Notes: generated by a model from the letters alone, not told the origin. Positions 2-58,779 are shown, counted from the first letter of the stretch. The stretch is 64,000 nt of DNA from a virus (IMGVR_UViG_3300042449_000993:64001-128000), one strand, 5' to 3'. A program made the numbers and translations.

Positions 2-3000
2 TCTGGTGCACAAGGCGTATCAGGTCCACAGGGAACTGGTCCGTCAGGTCCACAAGGAACTCAAGGTGTTTCTGGTCCAAGTGGTCCACAAGGAGATCCA
101 GGTGGTCCATCTGGTCCGTCAGGTCCACAAGGTCCGCAAGGTCCACCAAATGGTCCATCTGGTCCAAGTGGTCCACAAGGTCCTTCTGGTCCAACTGGTG
201 ACAAATATTCTACATCTAGTACATCGACATTTACGATTGCTCAAAATATAAACATCACGATTACAGTCGGCACTGGTTTATCTTGGACGCCTGGACGTGG
301 TGCTCTTATTCGACACGATGGATTTAACTTTATATACGGAAGTGTTGAAGCATATAATCCAGCCACTGGTGAATTTACATTCTTCTCAGATCCAATTCTT
401 GACTCTGCAGCAGGTGTAGGAAATTCATTTAGCAGTTGGAAAGTTGATGTTGCAATAATATTCTCAACAGTAGAAGGTCCTACTGGTCCATCAGGTGCTG
501 CATCTACCATTTCTGGTCCAACTGGTCCGTCAGGTCCATCGGGTCCATCTGGCGCTGCCTCTACAGTTTCTGGACCATCAGGTCCGAGTGGTCCAAGAGG
601 TGCATCAGGTCCATCTGGTCCATCAGGTCCACAAGGACCAAATGATGCAGCATCAATCAATTACATCCAAGATGGCACAGGTGCTGTTAGCAGAACAGTT
701 CAAGCAGGATTGAGAGATCGAATTAGTGTATTTGATTTCATGACAACTGCTGAAATCACCGATGTTGAAAATAGATCGTTTACTCTTGATGTAACATCAA
801 AAATTAAAGCAGCGATCGACGCTGCATCAGCACAAAGAAAAGATCTGTTCATTCCAGCAGGATTGTATAAGATCGTTCCAGCAACAGCATCTGAGTGGGC
901 TGGTGGTGCTGCTGACTCTGGTCCAGTTTATGTTGCATTTACAATACAAAATAATATGTCTATTGTTGCTGAGGAAGGTGCAGTATTTAAACTTGCAGAC
1001 AATTTCTCAGTTGTTGGTGCTGTGAAAGCGCATGCGATGTTCTTTACAAATGTCCCAACTGCAAATGTCTCCTTCTATGGTTTGACAATGGACATGAATG
1101 GAAATAACAATGATGGTATCGCGCCATTCCCTGGAGACAATAATCCACAAATCTTTATTAGTGGTAAAACACCACGCTATTCTATTCCATCAAGAAGAGC
1201 AACAAGCACCTCAACCAACACAATTGGAACAGGATCAAAATCATTCACCATAGAAACTGGTAAAAGTTTTAGTGTTGGTGAAGATATTGGTATGTTAGTT
1301 GCTTCAGGAACTGGAGCATCATTATGGTCTATGCATGGAACCGTCACATCGTATAATAGTGGCAGCGGTGCTCTAGTGGTAAATGTAACTCAAACTAGCA
1401 TATATGGAGTTGGTCAAAGCGTCGGTGGAAGTTCTGGTGGCGCGCCTCGTTGGGCAATTGGTGATGGTATTGGAGCATATATTGACGATGTTGTAATTGA
1501 AAAGTGCATCTTCTTGAATAATATGGGTAAAACTGTTCTTGGTTGTGCTCAATTAGATGGCGCAACGAAAATAAAATTAGGAAAAAATTGGAAAGTTCTG
1601 AACTGCACATTTAAAAATAATGGTAAACGTGCTGCGGACCACTCAACATTTTACGGTATGGTTGATGATTTGACTGTAGAAGGATGTTCATTCACAGCAG
1701 ATTCAATGTTCCCAAATGGTTCAACTGGACCATATGCTGATGGTGGTGGAACAATAACATGTGGTACACTTGTTGCGATTGAAACTCACGGAAGCAATCA
1801 CAGATATAGTAACAATTTATTTGAAAATTACTATCAAGGATTTTGGATTGCCTCAAACGGAGCATTTGAAGCAAACAATATTGTAATTGCGCAAAATAAT
1901 TTCAAAGTATTGACTTATGGAATGGGTTCGTATAGACGCGAAGGTGGTCCAACAATTATTCGAAATGTGAATATTTCTGACAATACATTCATATATGACA
2001 ATACTTCTAGCGCAGATGGCGTTCCTAAAGTGGGTGTTCTTATTGCTGAAGATGAAGAGATTGAAGATTGGAGCATCTGTAACAACATTGCTAGAAAAGA
2101 AGTGCCTGCTGGGCAATCAAATTATCAATCTTATTTTATAGGAATATTCACTGCACGTGTAAGCGGCGTGATGGATCGAATTGTTATTGATGGTAACTAT
2201 TGCACTGGATTTGCTCGCGGCATTGTTTTGTATAGTGCTGTATCAGGAAAGAGTTTAGGAACAATTCGAATCACGAACAATACCATTTTAAATCCAAACA
2301 CCACTTCATCATTCCCATCTGGTGCATATGGAATTTTGGCTTATACAACTGGTGGTGCATCTACAGTCAAAGAATTAATTATCGATAATAACTCATTTAT
2401 TGATAATCGTGCTTCGCCACAAATGCAATATGGGATTAGATTATCTGGTGATTGGACAGTTAATAATCTTTGGAGAGATGGGAACAAATACTATGGATCA
2501 ACAGTAGCAGATTTTGATTCAACTGGAGCGGTTATCACAAATACACGATCTGCAGATGGCGGTGGTGCAACTGGTCCGCAAGGCGCACAAGGTCCATCTG
2601 GTCCAACTGGTGCACAAGGCTCACAAGGACCAAGTGGACCAACATCAGGTGCTTCAAGCATCACGAATTTCACACCAACTTGGTATAATCAAGAATTTGG
2701 TTCTCCGCAAACAGCTGTAACGATTGGAAACGGAAACAACGTTGGGTATTATAGTTTGAATGGAAATGAAGTTACAGTTGTCGCAACATTATTGTTGGGA
2801 AGTACAACAAGTATTGCCACCAAATCAACATCAGGATATGTATATCTTGCATTACCCTTTGCCTCTGCTTATGCAGGATTAAGTTATAATGGTGTCTGGA
2901 GAATTTACGACGATAGTGTCGCTAAATTTTATAGTGGATCTGCGTTTGTCGATGGTGGTGGTAGTACTGTCTCTTTGGCTGTTGATAATGGTTTGTTCGT

Positions 3001-3085
3001 TCGAAATGCTGCAGGTTCTGAGAATCCTGTAAATTTTGCTGCGGGAGACGCATTGTCCGTGCAATTAACATATTTCAAGACATAA
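2..3085 (+). CDS. Collagen-like tail fibre / tailspike with pectate-lyase-like beta-helix (5'-truncated by the window edge)
   Basis: Frame is open from position 2 into the listed 710..3085 ORF; Gly-X-Y repeats (GPSGPQG); tailspike linker [26 protein letters not shown]; DLFIPAGLY; many I-x-x-N-x-F beta-helix rungs. Confidence 0.8.
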
Positions 3086-3090
3086 TCAAC

Positions 3091-3146
3091 TTGATTTTGG
3101 CGTAAATTTAACGTAGAATATAGGGATGTTTCGATCCTTATAAATA
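3091..3146 (+). promoter_or_regulatory. Sigma70-like promoter (TTGATT-17-TAGAAT, 3091-3119) followed by T4 late promoter TATAAATA (3139-3146)
   Basis: Motifs read directly in the gap upstream of 3170. Confidence 0.6.
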
Positions 3147-3169: not shown

Positions 3170-4339
3170 ATGTCAGATTTAAATAAAACTTGGCTCCCTG
3201 GACCTTCGAGAGGAACGACTACCGTAACCTCTCCAGGAAACGTTACAATCCCATATGGTCGTTTTGTTGGTACAGTTTCAGGAAAGGGTGCTCCTGGAAA
3301 CTCTCCAGTAACAGCAGGTTGGGTGACAAACTATAACACCAATTATAATGTTGCGTATCCAATCGCCAATCAGCCGATCGCAAATCAGCCACTGGCGAAT
3401 CAGCCAGCAACTGCTTGGACAACCAATTACAATACAAACTATAACACCAATTATAATGTTGCGTACCCAATCGCGAATCAACCAATCGCCAATCGTCCAA
3501 TCGCAAATCAACCAGCAACTGCTTGGACAACAAACTACAATACCAATTATAATACGAACTATTTCGTAACATATCCATTTGCTGGATTCGGTTTTGGACA
3601 CTTCTCGTTTGGTGGAAATAATCCAGGTGTTTATTTCGTGAACTCTTATCGATATTGGACTTACGGTATCTATCAAAACCAAGCTGGTCCTCCAGGATAT
3701 GTTCAAAGTACCAGTTACAACTTCGACGACTCTCAATGTCCATCGCACTTTGCATTCGATCAAACAAATCCATTACAATATCAGTGGCACTGGGTTTACT
3801 TTCAATGCTGGCATCAATTTGCACCAGGAAATGCATTCTTTTTCACAAATTACAATACAGAATATAACGTCGCATATCCTGTTGCAAATCAACCAGTGGC
3901 AAATCAACCAATTGCAAACCAGCCTATAACTGCTTGGACGACAAACTATAATACCAATTATAATACGAACTACAACGTTGCTTATCCAATTGCCAACCAA
4001 CCAATCGCAACTCAGCCACTGGCGAATCAACCAATAACTGCTTGGACGACAAACTATAATACAAATTATAATACCAACTACAATGTCGCGTATCCAATTG
4101 CGAATCAACCAATTGCAAATCAACCAGCCACAGGATTTACTCCTGGAAACATTGGTGCTTCTGCTTCTGCTCTTGGTGTGACATTACCTGGCGGTGCAGT
4201 TGGTAATGTGATTGATGGTGGTCCAATTCCAGCGACACCAATTTCACCAACAACAGTAAGTTACTGGACTTACCCAGATAATTCAACATATCCTGTTACA
4301 GCCCCTTCTGGATCGGAAGTCGTAATTAAACTTGAATAA
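3170..4339 (+). CDS. Repeat-rich putative virion adhesin/fibre protein (WTTNYNTNYN / YPIANQPIANQP repeats flanking an aromatic-rich core)
   Basis: 389 aa ORF after a late promoter; two repeat blocks around a F/Y/W-rich segment. Confidence 0.6.
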   Translation: MSDLNKTWLPGPSRGTTTVTSPGNVTIPYGRFVGTVSGKGAPGNSPVTAGWVTNYNTNYNVAYPIANQPIANQPLANQPATAWTTNYNTNYNTNYNVAYPIANQPIANRPIANQPATAWTTNYNTNYNTNYFVTYPFAGFGFGHFSFGGNNPGVYFVNSYRYWTYGIYQNQAGPPGYVQSTSYNFDDSQCPSHFAFDQTNPLQYQWHWVYFQCWHQFAPGNAFFFTNYNTEYNVAYPVANQPVANQPIANQPITAWTTNYNTNYNTNYNVAYPIANQPIATQPLANQPITAWTTNYNTNYNTNYNVAYPIANQPIANQPATGFTPGNIGASASALGVTLPGGAVGNVIDGGPIPATPISPTTVSYWTYPDNSTYPVTAPSGSEVVIKLE

Positions 4340-4363
4340 TTAATTGAGAGTGGAGTGAATATT

Positions 4364-4954
4364 ATGTTTAAGATTGATAAATTCAAAAGACAGTTTCCTA
4401 AATTCTGTCATGTTGAACAAGTCTTTTCTAAAGAAGAAGTAAAAAGAATTTATGATTTGGAAGATTTAGAAAAATTCCGAAGAGGAATGGTTGGATCTAA
4501 TAATTCTGAAGGTGAGGTTAAACTCGAATCTCGAGATTCTGAGATTATGTGGGTTAATCCTAATCATGAATCAGGTTGGATCTTTGATCGTTTTGCTCAA
4601 GTCTTAGCAAACGTGAACTATGATTTCTTCAATAGTAATATTAATCATATGGGTCCATTTCAATATACTCTTTATCGCGAAAATCAATATTATAACTGGC
4701 ATGTTGATTCAGATTCCATGTATGCTGATTTAACTCGAAAAATTAGTGCAACAATTATGTTATCTGATGCTTCTGATTATGTTGGTGGTGAGTTCGAATT
4801 GATTGCAAATGGTAATGTGGAACAGCCAATAATGCTTCGACCAAATGCAGGTGATATTATTTTCTTCGCCTCTCACATGCCTCATCGTGTTCGAGCAGTT
4901 ACACAAGGTGTGCGGAAATCGCTAGTGAATTGGATATATGGACCATGGGATTAA
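4364..4954 (+). CDS. 2OG-Fe(II) oxygenase, prolyl-4-hydroxylase/PKHD-like
   Basis: YNWHVD (HxD), RKISATIMLS, YVGGEFE, PHRVRAV, RKSLVNW; GGAG RBS favours ATG 4364. Confidence 0.85.
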   Translation: MFKIDKFKRQFPKFCHVEQVFSKEEVKRIYDLEDLEKFRRGMVGSNNSEGEVKLESRDSEIMWVNPNHESGWIFDRFAQVLANVNYDFFNSNINHMGPFQYTLYRENQYYNWHVDSDSMYADLTRKISATIMLSDASDYVGGEFELIANGNVEQPIMLRPNAGDIIFFASHMPHRVRAVTQGVRKSLVNWIYGPWD

Positions 4955-4964
4955 TGGATAAATT

Positions 4965-5711
4965 ATGGATCTCTCAAAGTTCACAAAACTCAAGTTTTGG
5001 TCAAATAACATCATTGAATTTTATTGTAGAAAAGAATTCGAAGGTGTAATTCCTGAACCAAAACCAGCAGCGAAATACTTTCCAGAATGGTTTAAAAATC
5101 TAGAACCATACATTGCTGCTAGAGATAAAAGCAGTGGTGATAAAAGAATCATGACTGCGAAAAGATGTCTGCCTCTCATCGATGCAATGTCATTGGGTTT
5201 TGTTATCCCTCTTGCTGCTGATTGCCACGTTTTAACAAATCATGACAATTCTCAAATACTTTTTAATGGATTGGCTGGATCATTCCCAATTATTGAATCT
5301 CATGATAAGCGACAAGTCGGAGGTCACAGCACAATTAAAAGAAATAATGGAGATGCTCTTAAATTCCTAAATTATTGGGTTGTGAAAACTGCTCCAGGAT
5401 GGTCAAGCCTTTTTATTCCTCCGATTAATAATTTCTCACAGCCGTTTACCTGTTTAGGTGGAATGGTTGATACTGACAAATATACAAAAGAAGTGAATTT
5501 TCCAGCAGTTTGGCATGCTCATAATTTTGATGGAATGATTTATGCAGGAACACCGCTTATTACTGTAATACCAATTAAAAGAAATATTTTTGATAAGAAA
5601 CCTGTTATTCGAAAAATGACTAAAAAAGAACAAGAAACTCATAATCAAATGAATCGAATTCAAAATAGTCGTCTTAGTTATTATACAAATGAGTTGAGGG
5701 TTAAGAAATGA
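4965..5711 (+). CDS. Conserved phage protein (DUF6065-like)
   Basis: PKPAAKYFPEWFK, TAKRCLPLIDAMSLGFVIP, WVVKTAPGWSSLF, GMVDTDKY, GTPLITVIP. Confidence 0.55.
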   Translation: MDLSKFTKLKFWSNNIIEFYCRKEFEGVIPEPKPAAKYFPEWFKNLEPYIAARDKSSGDKRIMTAKRCLPLIDAMSLGFVIPLAADCHVLTNHDNSQILFNGLAGSFPIIESHDKRQVGGHSTIKRNNGDALKFLNYWVVKTAPGWSSLFIPPINNFSQPFTCLGGMVDTDKYTKEVNFPAVWHAHNFDGMIYAGTPLITVIPIKRNIFDKKPVIRKMTKKEQETHNQMNRIQNSRLSYYTNELRVKK

Positions 5712-6493
5712 GATTTATTAAGTATTTTATGGGTGATAATAATGACATTTTGGACAATGGCATTCATCCAAAAAAAGACGATATTGAGTTTATCTGTTTC
5801 ATGGGTCAGGCTGCGTCTCATGAACAAACTCGAGTTAAACTTGCAAAAGAAGTCGACACAAAATTTAAAAAGTATCAAGTCGAAAAGCATGGATCGTACA
5901 CCTTTGCTCAATGTCCAGGAATGTTAGATTATTCCCGTCTAGGATATATCATTCCAGCATGGACCAACTTTGAGTTCATGTACAACTCTGCAGGTGTAGA
6001 GATATTTGATGGAACAATCGATTCTAGAGTTCGCTCTAAAATTCCATTAAGAGGATTCGATCCAACTATTTTCGATGGCGCAATTAAAAACGACGATGGA
6101 TCTAAAACTGAAATCTATAACATTCAAGCACCTTGGCATATTCGATGCAAGCCTGGAGTCCATATGATGATTATGCCTGCATTCTATCATAGCAATATTC
6201 TAGATGATTTTCATATCCTTCCAGGTGTTATTGATTATGGTAGCGGATTTCATACGATTAATTTCTTAACTGGACCAAAGAGATATGGTCAGTTTAAGAT
6301 TATGATGGGCGAGCCTCTATTCCACATCATTCCTCTCAAGAATGTCCCATTCACTGCTTCTTATGGACTTGTTGATAATTATAAAAATGTCTATAAAGAA
6401 GATGAGTTTTTTGGTAAAATTAAGAGTTTCTATAGAAAATTTTATTGCGGAAAGAGAAAATTCTCCTTACGAAAGGAGATGGGAGATAAATGA
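5708..6493 (+). CDS. Paralogue of the upstream gene (DUF6065-like)
   Basis: Same motif order: CPGMLDYSRLGYIIP, PWHIRCKPG, PGVIDY, GEPLFHIIP. Confidence 0.5.
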   Translation: MRFIKYFMGDNNDILDNGIHPKKDDIEFICFMGQAASHEQTRVKLAKEVDTKFKKYQVEKHGSYTFAQCPGMLDYSRLGYIIPAWTNFEFMYNSAGVEIFDGTIDSRVRSKIPLRGFDPTIFDGAIKNDDGSKTEIYNIQAPWHIRCKPGVHMMIMPAFYHSNILDDFHILPGVIDYGSGFHTINFLTGPKRYGQFKIMMGEPLFHIIPLKNVPFTASYGLVDNYKNVYKEDEFFGKIKSFYRKFYCGKRKFSLRKEMGDK

Positions 6494-7473
6494 AAACTAT
6501 TTTCGTAAGCATTGCTTCATATAGAGATAAACTTCTTTTAGCAACTCTGAACTCATTAAGGCAAAATGAGTCTGGTCGAAATAAGATCGTTTATGGTGTT
6601 TTCGAACAGACCAAAAAAGAAGACAGTTTAGAGACAAAAGCACCAGAGTTGCTAGACAATGCTGCGATTCGATACAAAAGAATAGACCCAGAATATGCTG
6701 ATGGAGTCGTCTGGGCTCGAGCAATCAACGCCATGCAGCACTATGATGAAGAGTTTTTCTATCAGATCGACTCTCATATGCTCTTTGATAAAGACTGGGA
6801 TAACACTCTTTTGTGGGACTATCAACAAGCATCTAGGCTTGCAAATAACCCTAAAGTTATTTTAACAACAGGCACGAAGAATTTCGAGTATTTCTCAAAT
6901 TATATCACAAAACATACACTAACTCGTGATATAACAGTGAATTTTAAGTATTGGCAATTTGATAAGGAATTATGTCTAAAGGTTCATGGTCCTTGGATTG
7001 CCGCGACTGATACTGTTGTTCCTGGAATCCATACGATCGCAGGTAACTTTTTCGCACCTGCTACCTGGATTAAAGATGTCGGATTCAACACTAGATTGTT
7101 TTTTGAGTATGAAGAACAATATATGTCTCTTACATCCATATTGGCTGGATATAAAATCTATCATCAGAGAAAGATCCAATGCTATCATTATCTGGATTCT
7201 GCGAAATCAACAACTCGCCAAGAGAACGATCCAGTTCGTCCGTCGAAGATCTTTGACAATAAGAAGCGAGAGAAGGAGGAATTTATCAATTATATATACT
7301 CTTTAGGTGAGGAGAAACTTGAAGAATATCGAAGATTGACAGGAGTTGATTATATAAATAGAAAATTAGAAGAGCGCGCAATCACCAGAACCGTTCCTCC
7401 AACAATTCCTGTTGATTGGGAATTGCCTCAACCACCAGAACCAGCAAAAGACGAAGAGAAAAATGAGCCTTGA
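6490..7473 (+). CDS. GT60-like glycosyltransferase ([Skp1]-hydroxyproline GlcNAc transferase family)
   Basis: N-terminal TIFVSIASYRD, GVVWAR, YQIDSHMLFDKDWD, AGNFFA, FFEYEE motifs typical of the Gnt1/GT60 family. Confidence 0.8.
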   Translation: MKTIFVSIASYRDKLLLATLNSLRQNESGRNKIVYGVFEQTKKEDSLETKAPELLDNAAIRYKRIDPEYADGVVWARAINAMQHYDEEFFYQIDSHMLFDKDWDNTLLWDYQQASRLANNPKVILTTGTKNFEYFSNYITKHTLTRDITVNFKYWQFDKELCLKVHGPWIAATDTVVPGIHTIAGNFFAPATWIKDVGFNTRLFFEYEEQYMSLTSILAGYKIYHQRKIQCYHYLDSAKSTTRQENDPVRPSKIFDNKKREKEEFINYIYSLGEEKLEEYRRLTGVDYINRKLEERAITRTVPPTIPVDWELPQPPEPAKDEEKNEP

Positions 7474-8149
7474 AAATGATTTTAAAGAAGTATTTTCATA
7501 TTCAATGCATGCTGGTGGTGGGACCAATCTAAATTTCGATGACATTGATAAAAATCTCTATAATACTCGAAAAATTGATCGATACTTTCTAGAAGGTATC
7601 AAGATCGACCCAAAGATCCACTCTACTCAAATGTTTTTAGCCAATAGTTTTTATTTTCTAGTGGCTGGAGAGATTGATATTAAATATCAAGACGGATCCG
7701 ACGATCGCGTTTCTGGTTCTTATTATAATTCGAATGATTGGGTTTCCTATAAAAAATTCTGGACTGAGAATAAGCCATGTAAGATTATTCCTTCTCAGAA
7801 TGCATGTTTATATAAAATTCAGAGAATAAAAGAAATACAGAATGATTCGCCTCTCAACGATCTATCAAACTTAAATGTGATAGTTAAAAAAGTGAGTGCA
7901 GATAACGTTTCTTTCACTACAACAGGTAATAGCATTCTTCTAGTGTTTAATGCTAGCATGGAAGAATTTACTTTAAGAAATGAAACAATTGTGTTTAATA
8001 CCTCAACTGAATCTGATTATTGCGAAATTCTTATTGACAAGAATCCGCAGTTTATAAAATTTAAAAATTATTATAGATTCTCAGTTAACGGAAATTGCAC
8101 ATTTTCTACTGCAAACTCTTGTCATTTAGTTTTGTTGACACCAAAGTAA
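7463..8149 (+). CDS. Hypothetical protein
   Basis: ORF, start re-assigned to ATG 7463 (MSLEND); TATAAATA at 7353-7360 upstream. Confidence 0.55.
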   Translation: MSLENDFKEVFSYSMHAGGGTNLNFDDIDKNLYNTRKIDRYFLEGIKIDPKIHSTQMFLANSFYFLVAGEIDIKYQDGSDDRVSGSYYNSNDWVSYKKFWTENKPCKIIPSQNACLYKIQRIKEIQNDSPLNDLSNLNVIVKKVSADNVSFTTTGNSILLVFNASMEEFTLRNETIVFNTSTESDYCEILIDKNPQFIKFKNYYRFSVNGNCTFSTANSCHLVLLTPK

Positions 8150-8165
8150 AGAATAGGAAAATAGC

Positions 8166-8504
8166 ATGGCAAGTCAAGTAGAATTATTTTGCGATCAAGG
8201 ATCTACATTTTCCTACACGATAGATATTGCAAATGACGACGGCACAAAAATTAATGTTGCTGGATATTCATTCTCATCATCTATTCGTAAATCATATTAT
8301 TCAAATAAAGTTGCTGCGAATTTAACCGTGGCAACTACAGACGCCGCAAACGGAAACGTTGCATTATCTATGAATGCAGCAACTACAGCAAACATTAAAG
8401 CTGGCAGATATCTTTATGACGTTAGAATGGTAGACACATCAAATGTTGTTACACGTGTGATTGAAGGAGTCATTACTGTCTACCCACAAGTAACAAAGTC
8501 ATAA
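8166..8504 (+). CDS. Small virion structural/adaptor protein common in T4-like aquatic phages
   Basis: DQGSTFS...IRKSYYS...AGRYLYDV...RVIEGVITVYPQVT; lies directly before the fibre genes. Confidence 0.6.
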   Translation: MASQVELFCDQGSTFSYTIDIANDDGTKINVAGYSFSSSIRKSYYSNKVAANLTVATTDAANGNVALSMNAATTANIKAGRYLYDVRMVDTSNVVTRVIEGVITVYPQVTKS

Positions 8505-16603: not shown

Positions 16604-17617
16604 ATGAAGATACATGTACTTGCTATTCCAACCAAGCCAACTGGTTTAATGGATCGCATGGAAGCATTTTCCGTGCATGCCTACAAATACATTAAACATC
16701 TCTCACCTCATTTTGAAATGATTCATTATGGGCTTGAGGGATCTACAGTTGATTGTAGACATATTGATGTTGCAGCGCATGACAATAATGATCTTGAAAA
16801 ATTCAATCGATCTGCTGCTCAAGCAATACAAAAGAATAAATCGCCTGGTGATATTATTGCCTGCTTCTATGGCACAGAAAATCAACTGGCATGCGATTTA
16901 AATTCAGATTGTCAATCTCTTGAGCCATCAATTGGTTATAGAACCAGCTGTGTGTTTGCCAAATATAAAGCATTCACATCATACGCTCACATGCATATGT
17001 TTTATGGCGAGCGAAATATGGTAAACAACCCTTCTTGGTATGATACAGTAATTCCAAATCCATTTACTATTTCTGAATTCGATTATCAATCTAAAAAACA
17101 TGACTACTATGTTTGCATGGGCAGAGTTGTTCCAGAAAAGGGTATACATTTGGCAATTCAAGCGACGCAACAACTTAATCGTAAACTTGTAATCGCAGGA
17201 CCAGCAACAGATTTAAAACATTTAGGATACGATAAAATTCCAGACCACGTTGAATTGGTTGGTTATCTAGAACCGAAAAAGAGAAATGAATTGCTTGGTA
17301 GAGCAAAGGCACTTTTAGGTCTAACTTATTATGTTGAGCCATTTGGAAATATGGTTATTGAAGCAAATTTGTGCGGCACTCCAGTAATTACAACAGATTG
17401 GGGTGCATTTCCAGAAACCGTATTTGAAGGAAAAACTGGATATAGAGTTAATGATTTTAAATCGTTGATTCAAGCCATGATTAATGTTGAAAGCGGTGTA
17501 ATGATTAATCCTCGCGATTGTAGATTTTGGGGAGAAAGATTCTCAGATGAAATCGTTCATGAAAAACATAAAGCCTATCTAGAAAAAATTATAACAAATA
17601 ATTTTTATGCGCTCTAA
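16604..17617 (+). CDS. Glycosyltransferase family 4 (GT-B)
   Basis: GRVVPEKGIH, EPFGNMVIEANLCGTPVI. Confidence 0.9.
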   Translation: MKIHVLAIPTKPTGLMDRMEAFSVHAYKYIKHLSPHFEMIHYGLEGSTVDCRHIDVAAHDNNDLEKFNRSAAQAIQKNKSPGDIIACFYGTENQLACDLNSDCQSLEPSIGYRTSCVFAKYKAFTSYAHMHMFYGERNMVNNPSWYDTVIPNPFTISEFDYQSKKHDYYVCMGRVVPEKGIHLAIQATQQLNRKLVIAGPATDLKHLGYDKIPDHVELVGYLEPKKRNELLGRAKALLGLTYYVEPFGNMVIEANLCGTPVITTDWGAFPETVFEGKTGYRVNDFKSLIQAMINVESGVMINPRDCRFWGERFSDEIVHEKHKAYLEKIITNNFYAL

Positions 17618-18356
17618 ACTATTTGTAATCACCTCTGTAATTGAACCGACTGCAGCACCATTAACATATAGTAATAGTCGCTCATTTTTTACAACGGAAG
17701 AAAGACTTCGGCAAACGTTTTCTACAGTAAATAGTATTCAAAATGCTTTTCCTGATGCAAATATTGTATTGCTAGATGGCTCAAATACAAATTTCTCAGG
17801 ATATTTTGGTTATATCAAAAACTTTAAATATGTCTCATTAAAAGAAATAGACTCTGATGTTTGCGAGATTGTAAATAATCATAAACATAAATCATATTGT
17901 GAATGTCTTATGCTTAAAACATTCTACGAGAAATTTAAAGATTATATTCTTGAGCATGACTATACGTTTAAAGTTAGTGGAAGATATCTTGTTTTTGATA
18001 TGAACAATCATTTGTTTACGGAAGAAAACAAAAACAAAATCTTTTTTAAGAATAAATTGATTCATGAATGGCAAGATTATTGGGGATATAATTACGTTGA
18101 TCGGAGAGAGCAACAACAGAATAATAAGTTGTATCAATACTCTACCGTATTATATGGATTTGGAACTCAACAATTAGATACTTTTATTGAGTTGCATAAT
18201 AAAACGATTGATTTTTTATCTGATTCGAATAATCATCATTTTGATATGGAAACATTATTCTATTTTTATATGAGAGATCATGAAGATAAAATAATCGAAA
18301 CAGATTGGAGAGTTTCGGGATGGCTAGGACCGTGCGGAACATTTGTGTTCTATTGA
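17607..18356 (+). CDS. Hypothetical protein, possibly glycosyltransferase-like
   Basis: 249 aa overlapping the GT4 gene; FVITS, LLDGS, FKVSGRY. Confidence 0.45.
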   Translation: MRSKLFVITSVIEPTAAPLTYSNSRSFFTTEERLRQTFSTVNSIQNAFPDANIVLLDGSNTNFSGYFGYIKNFKYVSLKEIDSDVCEIVNNHKHKSYCECLMLKTFYEKFKDYILEHDYTFKVSGRYLVFDMNNHLFTEENKNKIFFKNKLIHEWQDYWGYNYVDRREQQQNNKLYQYSTVLYGFGTQQLDTFIELHNKTIDFLSDSNNHHFDMETLFYFYMRDHEDKIIETDWRVSGWLGPCGTFVFY

Positions 18357-58149: not shown

Positions 58150-58779
58150 ATGCTTGTGATGAATGTGTATAAACTTCGTGATGATATTGAACTTCCAACA
58201 TACGGCACTTCTTTAGCAAACTGTTTTGATTTGTCATTCCAACCAACATCAAATGTTGTAAATGGATATGATTCATTTAACGCACCTGTTGAAAGAGAAG
58301 TAAATGGATTTGGTGAAGTTTCTATCTATCCTGGTGATCGTTTATTGATCCCAACTGGATTAATTTTCAAAATCGAACGTTATGTTACGATTGAAACATT
58401 TGCAGACATTGCACGACATGATGCTGAACTTCCGCTTCAGAACTATAGCATTCGTCTTCATCCTCGCTCAGGACTTTCGCTTAAGAAAGGATTGATCCTA
58501 GCAAACAGCGAAGGCATCGTTGATGTTGATTATCAAGAAGAAGTGTTTGTGCTTTTGACAAACGTTTCCAAGATGCATCAGACAATTCGTCGCGGCGATC
58601 GTATTGCTCAGGCTGAAGTTGTATCAAACAATCCATTCGCATTTAAAGTTATCGCATTAAGACCAGAGAAGCATTCTGAAAGATCTGGTGGATTTGGTTC
58701 AACTGGGATTTCGTTGAATACAGAAACTCCGCCAATGGAAGAATGGCACGTCGACGGACCAACAGAGTTTCCTAAATAG
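58150..58779 (+). CDS. dut: Trimeric dUTPase
   Basis: PRSGLS, GIVDVDY, GDRIAQ, RSGGFGSTG. Confidence 0.92.
   Translation: MLVMNVYKLRDDIELPTYGTSLANCFDLSFQPTSNVVNGYDSFNAPVEREVNGFGEVSIYPGDRLLIPTGLIFKIERYVTIETFADIARHDAELPLQNYSIRLHPRSGLSLKKGLILANSEGIVDVDYQEEVFVLLTNVSKMHQTIRRGDRIAQAEVVSNNPFAFKVIALRPEKHSERSGGFGSTGISLNTETPPMEEWHVDGPTEFPK

Follow-up and report, generated by a model that had tools for sequence, protein, structure and literature searches.

We describe a five-gene cassette at positions 3170 to 7473 of the window, a 64,000-nucleotide stretch of viral DNA (IMGVR_UViG_3300042449_000993:64001-128000) taken from a 172,991-bp IMG/VR record that is rated complete, of which it spans bases 64001-128000. 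The cassette encodes a repeat protein, a prolyl 4-hydroxylase (P4H)-like oxygenase, two proteins of the DUF6065 family (dufA and dufB) and a GT60-like glycosyltransferase. The source virus, a T4-like myovirus, carries genes for neck, sheath-stabiliser and tail-fibre proteins shortly after the cassette. Read from the genes alone, the cassette has a little better than an even chance of being a module that is expressed late and tailors a single fibre-like protein of the phage, so that the phage probably modifies a fibre protein of its own. What is directly supported is the identity of the genes, their intact catalytic motifs, the predicted folds, the operon and the very tight co-inheritance; from these we infer the substrate, the modified residue, the sugar, the order of the steps and the location in the virion. 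The promoter box and the five genes are listed here.

3139..3146, + strand: T4-type late promoter box TATAAATA, 23 nt before the ATG of the repeat-protein gene
3170..4339, + strand: repeat protein, putative substrate, 389 aa, upstream of the oxygenase
4355..4954, + strand: P4H-like (PKHD-type) 2-oxoglutarate (2OG)-Fe(II) oxygenase, 199 aa (PF13640, phrog_61), starting at GTG 4355 or ATG 4364
4965..5711, + strand: dufA, DUF6065 protein, 248 aa (PF19541, phrog_7084)
5708..6493, + strand: dufB, divergent DUF6065 paralogue, 261 aa (phrog_7084)
6490..7473, + strand: GT60-like retaining GT-A glycosyltransferase, 327 aa (PF11397)

A preliminary description of this DNA had proposed that a single promoter region, directly downstream of a collagen-like fibre, is followed by these five genes. 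The five open reading frames (ORFs) lie on the + strand at the positions and with the identities it gave, the collagen-repeat fibre ORF ends at 3085, and one late box stands at 3139 with the next only at 7353. The gaps between the five genes are, in order, 15, 10, -4 and -4 nt. The window holds five copies of TATAAATA, all on the + strand, and those at 3139, 11133, 29922 and 32652 are directly upstream of gene starts; the number of copies by itself does not exceed chance, as at least five matches were found in 18 of 100 shuffles. One late promoter ahead of overlapping or near-abutting genes is the first line of support for a tailoring module.

The second, and the strongest, is linkage, which was probed from two sides, using viral loci found with GT60 (80) and with the C-terminal domain of the repeat protein (75). 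Among the GT60-side loci the order is repeat protein, oxygenase, dufA, dufB, GT60 in 47 of 80, and the same order behind two repeat-protein genes occurs in 14 of 80. In 6 of the 80, GT60 lies on the opposite side of the repeat gene, still adjacent to it, and the partial sets seen in the remaining 13 are mostly cut by the end of the contig. The run oxygenase-dufA-dufB is present in every GT60-side locus with enough sequence, and a repeat-family gene wherever the upstream sequence reaches (67 loci). From the repeat-protein side, all four enzymes were found in 66 of 75 loci and the oxygenase in all 75. Altogether the cassette occurs in well over a hundred phage contigs. Conservation of the neighbourhood across related phages, proposed as a check on the cassette, is thus strongly positive from the enzyme side and from the repeat-protein side, and the module stays intact across its relocations, which speaks for the tailoring reading.

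The position of the cassette varies: it comes after a collagen-like fibre both in the window and in L071, and lies between neck and baseplate genes in L043. Because the module sits in different genomic places, its constant partner is the repeat protein and not the collagen-like fibre, relatives of which are variable in position or absent in the related loci. The suggestion that the collagen-like fibre is a target of the cassette is not supported. A pattern scan of 185,579 prokaryote genomes for GT60 gave one match, a 4.4-kb contig of a metagenome-assembled genome (MAG). This contig (DOMR01000007.1; L085, 4365 bp, MAG labelled Chitinophagaceae) carries a repeat-protein C-terminus, the oxygenase, dufA, dufB, GT60 and a tail-fibre assembly gene, and most likely represents a fragment of the phage cassette that was binned with a bacterial MAG, not a bacterial copy.

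The oxygenase matches PF13640 (2OG-FeII_Oxy_3; E 2e-15, 58 bits against a cut-off of 27) and phrog_61 (6e-32), and the NCBIfam PRK05467 (YbiX-type) models match it below their equivalog cut-offs. Residues H116, D118, H177 and R187 are invariant in 23 orthologues, and the HxD...H iron triad and the basic 2OG-binding residue are, judged by these columns, intact. A profile built from the orthologues was compared with the PDB. The closest chains were PiuC/PKHD hydroxylases (3e-11), including Sbal_3634, followed by the PBCV-1 P4H 5c5t (6e-7), 4iw3 (4e-6), which we take to be the Pseudomonas PHD homologue PPHD, a Chlamydomonas P4H (5e-4) and prolyl 3-hydroxylase 1 (0.012). Solved relatives of known substrate are nearly all prolyl hydroxylases, three weak phytanoyl-CoA dioxygenase matches being the exception, and no PHD-family chain such as PHD2 ranks above the PiuC, viral and algal P4H matches. 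The claim of a P4H-like oxygenase is borne out by the intact HxD...H...R site and by the profile. The enzyme can be read as an intact member of the prolyl-hydroxylase-like superfamily, with prolyl hydroxylase as the best guess for its activity; the invariant iron and 2OG ligands, together with solved relatives that are mostly prolyl hydroxylases, speak for tailoring. Four more PF13640-type matches lie in the same genome (G000:C1 14027-14287, 17066-17284, 19749-19979 and 101497-101751), three of them clustered upstream of the window.

The GT60-like protein matches PF11397 (GlcNAc; E 2.5e-26, 93.4 bits against a cut-off of 21), which is presumably the family of Gnt1, the N-acetylglucosamine (GlcNAc) transferase acting on hydroxyproline (Hyp) of Skp1. 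Homologues numbered 235, and all the matches listed carry the PF11397 annotation. The motifs IFVSIASYRD (aa 4-13) and QIDSH (aa 92-96), by which this enzyme was originally recognised, are both present, and D94, S95 and H96 of the DxH motif as well as H233 are invariant in 22 homologues. A sequence search for a solved GT60 structure gave none. An AlphaFold2 model (predicted local distance difference test, pLDDT, 91.6) was compared with the PDB using Foldseek, and the chains listed among the top 50 were all GT27 polypeptide N-acetylgalactosamine (GalNAc) transferases, with E values from 2e-11. The model thus indicates a protein-type, metal-dependent GT-A enzyme with a polypeptide-glycosyltransferase fold, and the invariant DxH motif and the match to polypeptide GalNAc-transferases fit a protein-tailoring role. 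GT60 holds both the Hyp-specific Gnt1 and Thr-specific enzymes of Trypanosoma cruzi, so the acceptor is not readable from the family.

In some loci GT60 is replaced or joined by a sulfotransferase, which where it takes the place of GT60 is of the carbohydrate type (PF03567). L108, L112, L114, L128 and L129 have the order repeat protein, oxygenase, sulfotransferase (PF03567), dufA, dufB, with no GT60 within 7 kb, and L142 has repeat protein, oxygenase, dufA and dufB alone. An extra gene lies between the repeat-protein and oxygenase genes in L039, L040 and L045, where GT60 is also present; it matches PF03567 in L039 and L040 and is without a Pfam match in L045. Another sulfotransferase is found a few genes downstream of the cassette in L071.

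L108:7773-8396, L128:7801-8502, L039:1860-2552 and L071:10804-11508: sulfotransferases (PF03567 or PF00685), inside or beside the cassette

The donor required by sulfotransferases is 3'-phosphoadenosine-5'-phosphosulfate (PAPS). By these gene orders the invariant core is repeat protein, oxygenase, dufA and dufB, and for O-decoration GT60 is interchangeable with the sulfotransferase. Either enzyme requires a hydroxyl as acceptor, and the swap fits a scheme in which a hydroxyl is made and then capped; it is equally compatible with decoration of native Ser, Thr or Tyr hydroxyls. That a sulfotransferase swaps with or joins GT60 is a further reason to read the cassette as a tailoring module.

dufA scores 33 bits against PF19541 (DUF6065; cut-off 26.6) and 1e-56 against phrog_7084. 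dufB has no Pfam match, and its match to phrog_7084 (4e-17) and its identity to dufA (BLASTP, 25% over 155 aa, E 6e-7) are the reasons for counting it as a divergent DUF6065 member. For dufA, an AlphaFold2 model based on 61 diverse relatives reached a pLDDT of 91. The matches listed by Foldseek (E 6e-4) were dUTPases and one dCTP deaminase, and in an independent all-against-all structural search the top 22 chains were all dUTPase or dCTP deaminase (Z 6.5-10.6), the next falling to about 5. On this model DUF6065 has a dUTPase fold; the possibility that it is a third oxygenase or a cupin was rejected by the fold search. The motif G-x-VDTD-x-Y of DUF6065 aligns to motif III of the phage's own dUTPase (window 58150-58779), and of the five dUTPase motifs only III (VDTD-x-Y) and IV align, weakly, to that enzyme (hhalign E 0.015). 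The C-terminus of the dufA model is helical and is not a Gly-rich motif V. Cys68 of dufA is invariant in 61 of 61 sequences and is kept in dufB as C69. A comparison of columns shows that apart from this Cys dufB has lost most family-wide polar residues, H113, Q117, K133, D171 and R206 of the family consensus being absent.

The preliminary description had suggested that the DUF6065 pair may be further tailoring enzymes. The dUTPase fold, and the place of the pair with the oxygenase within the invariant core, speak against an optional tailoring step, and dufA and dufB are instead obligatory partners of the oxygenase. Natural tandem DUF6065 fusions (P0269, P0276 and P0322; 450-480 aa) fit paralogues working as a pair, and dufA and dufB probably form a hetero-oligomer of dUTPase-fold proteins. 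A main role in the service of the transferase, such as removal of uridine diphosphate (UDP), was rejected because cassettes without GT60 retain the pair along with the oxygenase. The DUF6065 family comprises about 2,000 sequence clusters. Solitary members, 33-37% identical to dufA, occur in the halovirus HF1 and about 50 other haloarchaeal tailed viruses. In HF1 (L083, 48119-49003) the lone gene lies between a ribonucleotide reductase gene and the tail module, and tblastn detected no oxygenase or GT60 homologue at this locus. One Bacteroidota genome has a DUF6065 gene beside an NADH dehydrogenase operon. Neither setting is informative about the pair, and Atlas entries likewise gave nothing further on dufA.

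The repeat protein has 14 A[NT][QR]P motifs and 16 [YF]N motifs. It is built from an N-terminal domain of about 50 aa, a first arm (3326-3552), a core, a second arm (3845-4126) and a C-terminal domain of about 65 aa (4139-4336), both arms being arrays of a 108-nt (36-aa) unit. The core (about 3553-3844, aa about 130-230) is non-repeat and aromatic and contains two Cys (C190 and C213). The layout of the protein is symmetric, with mirror-like arms, which suggests a hairpin-shaped fibre in which the conserved ends would meet at the base and the aromatic core would lie at the tip; the two-Cys core may be the distal tip of such a hairpin. Two-Cys aromatic cores of a similar kind are seen in the L040 and L045 homologues. 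Searches of Pfam, PHROG and NCBIfam gave no match for the repeat protein, and its Atlas model has a pLDDT of 0.31. The late promoter and the position of the gene suggest that it is a virion component.

Compared with the repeat protein of the window, the genes that precede the oxygenase in related phages form one family with it, in which the N- and C-terminal domains are well conserved and the middle is hypervariable, with quite different units. Recurring units include NYNVAYPIANQP, YNTVPGTTNP, FNAPTNGPQN, YNAGNPAS, YNAPTGQTSTGT, SYNAQNVA and FTPGGTNPPNPGN, and a central aromatic patch is frequent. Across the family the repeats contain 8-28% Asn (19-26% in five tabulated loci), 10-22% Tyr plus Phe and about 13-29% Ser plus Thr. 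Pro follows the [YF]N motif by 0-3 residues in most repeat types, and Ser or Thr often stands beside an aromatic residue or ahead of Pro. L004, L008, L009 and L031-L037 have two or three tandem repeat-protein paralogues before one set of enzymes.

Taken as a tailoring module, the cassette would work in up to four steps. The P4H-like 2OG/Fe(II) oxygenase would hydroxylate side chains of the repeats, most likely Pro, and would do so jointly with the dufA/dufB pair. A Mn-dependent retaining GT60-type transferase would then add a sugar to a peptide hydroxyl, probably from a UDP-N-acetylhexosamine donor, the acceptor being the new hydroxyl or Ser/Thr. In some phages a sulfotransferase would replace or supplement the sugar step. 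The earlier proposal that the phage runs a hydroxylate-then-glycosylate pathway on its own fibre proteins is upheld in part: the gene identities, the intact oxygenase, the polypeptide-glycosyltransferase fold and the linkage support it, while the role it gave to DUF6065 and its collagen-fibre partner are not supported.

Several observations weigh against this reading. In cultured phages no blastn match to the region was found, nor any tblastn match to GT60 or to the repeat protein, and the latter does not detectably resemble any known virion protein. The nearest relatives of the oxygenase are PiuC/YbiX-type hydroxylases, for which, as for Sbal_3634, we know of no assigned substrate. GT27 and some GT60 enzymes glycosylate Thr or Ser without prior hydroxylation. 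The reading also gives no role for two dUTPase-fold proteins. Finally, the Pro content of the repeats varies between 4% (L040) and 32% (L128), whereas Asn, Ser/Thr and Tyr/Phe are kept, and some cassette-linked repeat proteins have long Pro-free repeats, Pro being 4-6% in L040 and L045. Pro does not seem to be obligatory in each repeat unit, and this variation leaves Hyp as the sugar acceptor plausible but unproven.

Two more specific accounts of the chemistry are about equally likely, each distinctly less so than the general reading. One is a narrower version of that reading, in which the chemistry is strictly that of the Skp1 pathway: the oxygenase makes 4-hydroxyproline in ANQP-type motifs and GT60 adds alpha-GlcNAc to the Hyp. 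We regard this as unlikely, though a real contender. The PF11397 match to what we take to be the Gnt1 family, the preponderance of prolyl hydroxylases among the solved oxygenase relatives, the co-inheritance of oxygenase and GT60, and the Pro found close to [YF]N in most repeat types all fit it. It has to contend with the full cassettes of L040 and L045, where Pro is scarce and long units lack it, with the loci in which GT60 is lost or replaced and the oxygenase and DUF6065 pair are retained, with an oxygenase that is PKHD/PiuC-like and ranks no PHD2-type chain above PiuC, viral or algal P4H, and with the Thr-specific enzymes among GT60.

The second account, to which we give a similar minority weight, treats the modifications as independent. 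GT60 would act on Ser/Thr in the manner of a mucin-type enzyme, and the oxygenase and the DUF6065 proteins would separately hydroxylate Pro, Asn or aromatic residues, or cross-link through Cys. The structural matches of the GT60 model to Ser/Thr-specific polypeptide GalNAc-transferases and to nothing else, the steady Ser plus Thr content of the repeats (13-21%) with its placement by aromatic residues or ahead of Pro, and the core of repeat protein, oxygenase, dufA and dufB that persists without GT60 in L142, L108 and L128 are in its favour. It leaves the substitution of GT60 by a sulfotransferase unexplained, although Ser, Thr or Tyr acceptors would also fit that substitution.

It is improbable that the enzymes act on something other than the repeat protein, such as a small molecule, a peptide metabolite, the host envelope or host proteins, with the repeat gene a mere neighbour. 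Phage arrays of dioxygenase, halogenase and dUTPase-fold genes have been read as secondary-metabolite clusters (Iyer et al. 2010, PMC2938197). DUF6065 stands alone, with no repeat protein nearby, in haloarchaeal viruses and bacteria, and four more PF13640-type oxygenases are encoded elsewhere in the genome. Against this, the cassette is completely linked to one protein family in both search directions and across relocations and permutations of gene order, the transferase fold is polypeptide-specific, and the genes, under a late promoter, belong to a tail-fibre module. Very improbable, finally, is a multi-core precursor of the kind that yields ribosomally synthesised and post-translationally modified peptides, modified and then cut into short peptides, for although the many near-identical short units and adjacent tailoring enzymes recall one, there is no protease or exporter in or beside the cassette, the conserved terminal domains and structured central core point to a folded protein, and expression is late, among structural genes.

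In the Skp1 pathway of Dictyostelium and Toxoplasma, the prolyl 4-hydroxylase PhyA acts with Gnt1 (GT60). The phage module resembles it in pairing an oxygenase of the P4H superfamily with a PF11397/GT60 transferase bearing DxH, in being cytoplasmic and soluble, and in its hydroxylate-then-glycosylate logic. It differs in the putative substrate, a hypervariable repeat protein with tens of candidate sites, in its two obligatory dUTPase-fold partners, its single operon and its sulfotransferase-swappable transferase. Membership in the Skp1 pathway is not supported, as no Skp1-like gene lies in the module and the oxygenase is PKHD/PiuC-like, not PHD-type; the module may work like that pathway without being a member of it. 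The PBCV-1 P4H and Mimivirus L230 are viral hydroxylases whose presumed targets are Pro-rich or collagen-like repeat proteins of the same virus, L230 being a bifunctional enzyme that hydroxylates Lys, with glycosylation following. The significant profile match to 5c5t links the phage oxygenase to the first of these; unlike the phage enzymes, both belong to giant eukaryotic viruses, with no DUF6065 partners and no GT60. The GT27 GalNAc-transferases are the closest solved fold to the GT60-like protein and share its D-S-H metal motif, but identity is only 13-16%, and the phage enzyme is without a lectin domain and is PF11397/GT60 by Pfam.

Hydroxylation followed by sulfation was predicted for tail-collar and collagen-like proteins in bacterial operons by Iyer, Abhiman, de Souza and Aravind in 2010 (PMC2938197), so the idea of hydroxylating and then decorating fibre-like proteins is not new, and this prediction matches the sulfotransferase variants of the cassette. 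The same work placed a dUTPase-fold Cys protein, whose gene was not named, in the dioxygenase array of cyanophage Syn9, and read the phage arrays as metabolite clusters, mentioning no glycosyltransferase and no dedicated repeat-protein family (PMC2938197). That protein appears to be Syn9 gp43, a DUF6065 relative: gp43 matches dufA weakly and is found a few genes downstream of a tail-fibre assembly gene, with halogenases on one side of it and 2OG oxygenases on the other. The array (roughly gp41-gp54) and the cassette thus appear to share this dUTPase-fold Cys protein. Unlike the arrays, the cassette is compact, with one oxygenase, two DUF6065 proteins and one decorator, and is strictly tied to one substrate-like gene. 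A search of the literature on the cassette families found no study of the cassette.

Other features of the window around the cassette are given below.

2..3085, + strand: collagen-repeat tail fibre (PF01391 and tail-fibre PHROGs), its 5' end outside the window
7353-7360, + strand: late-promoter box inside the 3' end of GT60, 52 nt before the ORF at 7412-8149
7412-8149: 245-aa ORF with a TTG start, with no family match and no homologue in any related locus
8166..8504, + strand: small tail-fibre-assembly-like protein (phrog_1084, phrog_3304), which in the window's clade comes after the cassette, with 55-65% identity
16604..17617, + strand: GT4-type glycosyltransferase (PF00534), co-conserved with the ORF at 17607-18356 in many related loci

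The GT4-type gene is conserved at 59-63% identity, and the neighbouring 249-aa ORF at 46-58%, in many cassette-bearing loci; the GT4-type enzyme could extend a glycan. The phage genome has no psbA, which makes a cyanobacterial host improbable.

Few unexplained genes are as common in marine and freshwater T4-like phages as those for 2OG-Fe(II) oxygenases, of which the source genome has five. A genetically linked, dedicated substrate would make the function of such an oxygenase testable, and the cassette gives DUF6065, a dUTPase-fold family, a concrete functional context. We know of no bacteriophage for which hydroxylation followed by glycosylation or sulfation of a fibre has been shown. Such decoration could affect host recognition, protease resistance or stickiness in the water column. 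With somewhat less confidence than we have in the module itself, and at rather under an even chance, we suggest that the cassette is a portable toolkit of aquatic T4-like phages, combining a hydroxylase, a dUTPase-fold Cys pair of new function and a swappable O-glycosyl- or O-sulfotransferase, which would mark a hypervariable hairpin-shaped fibre dozens of times. If so, these virions would bear an appendage decorated in the manner of a mucin or an extensin, and a part of the abundant viral 2OG oxygenases would have a function.

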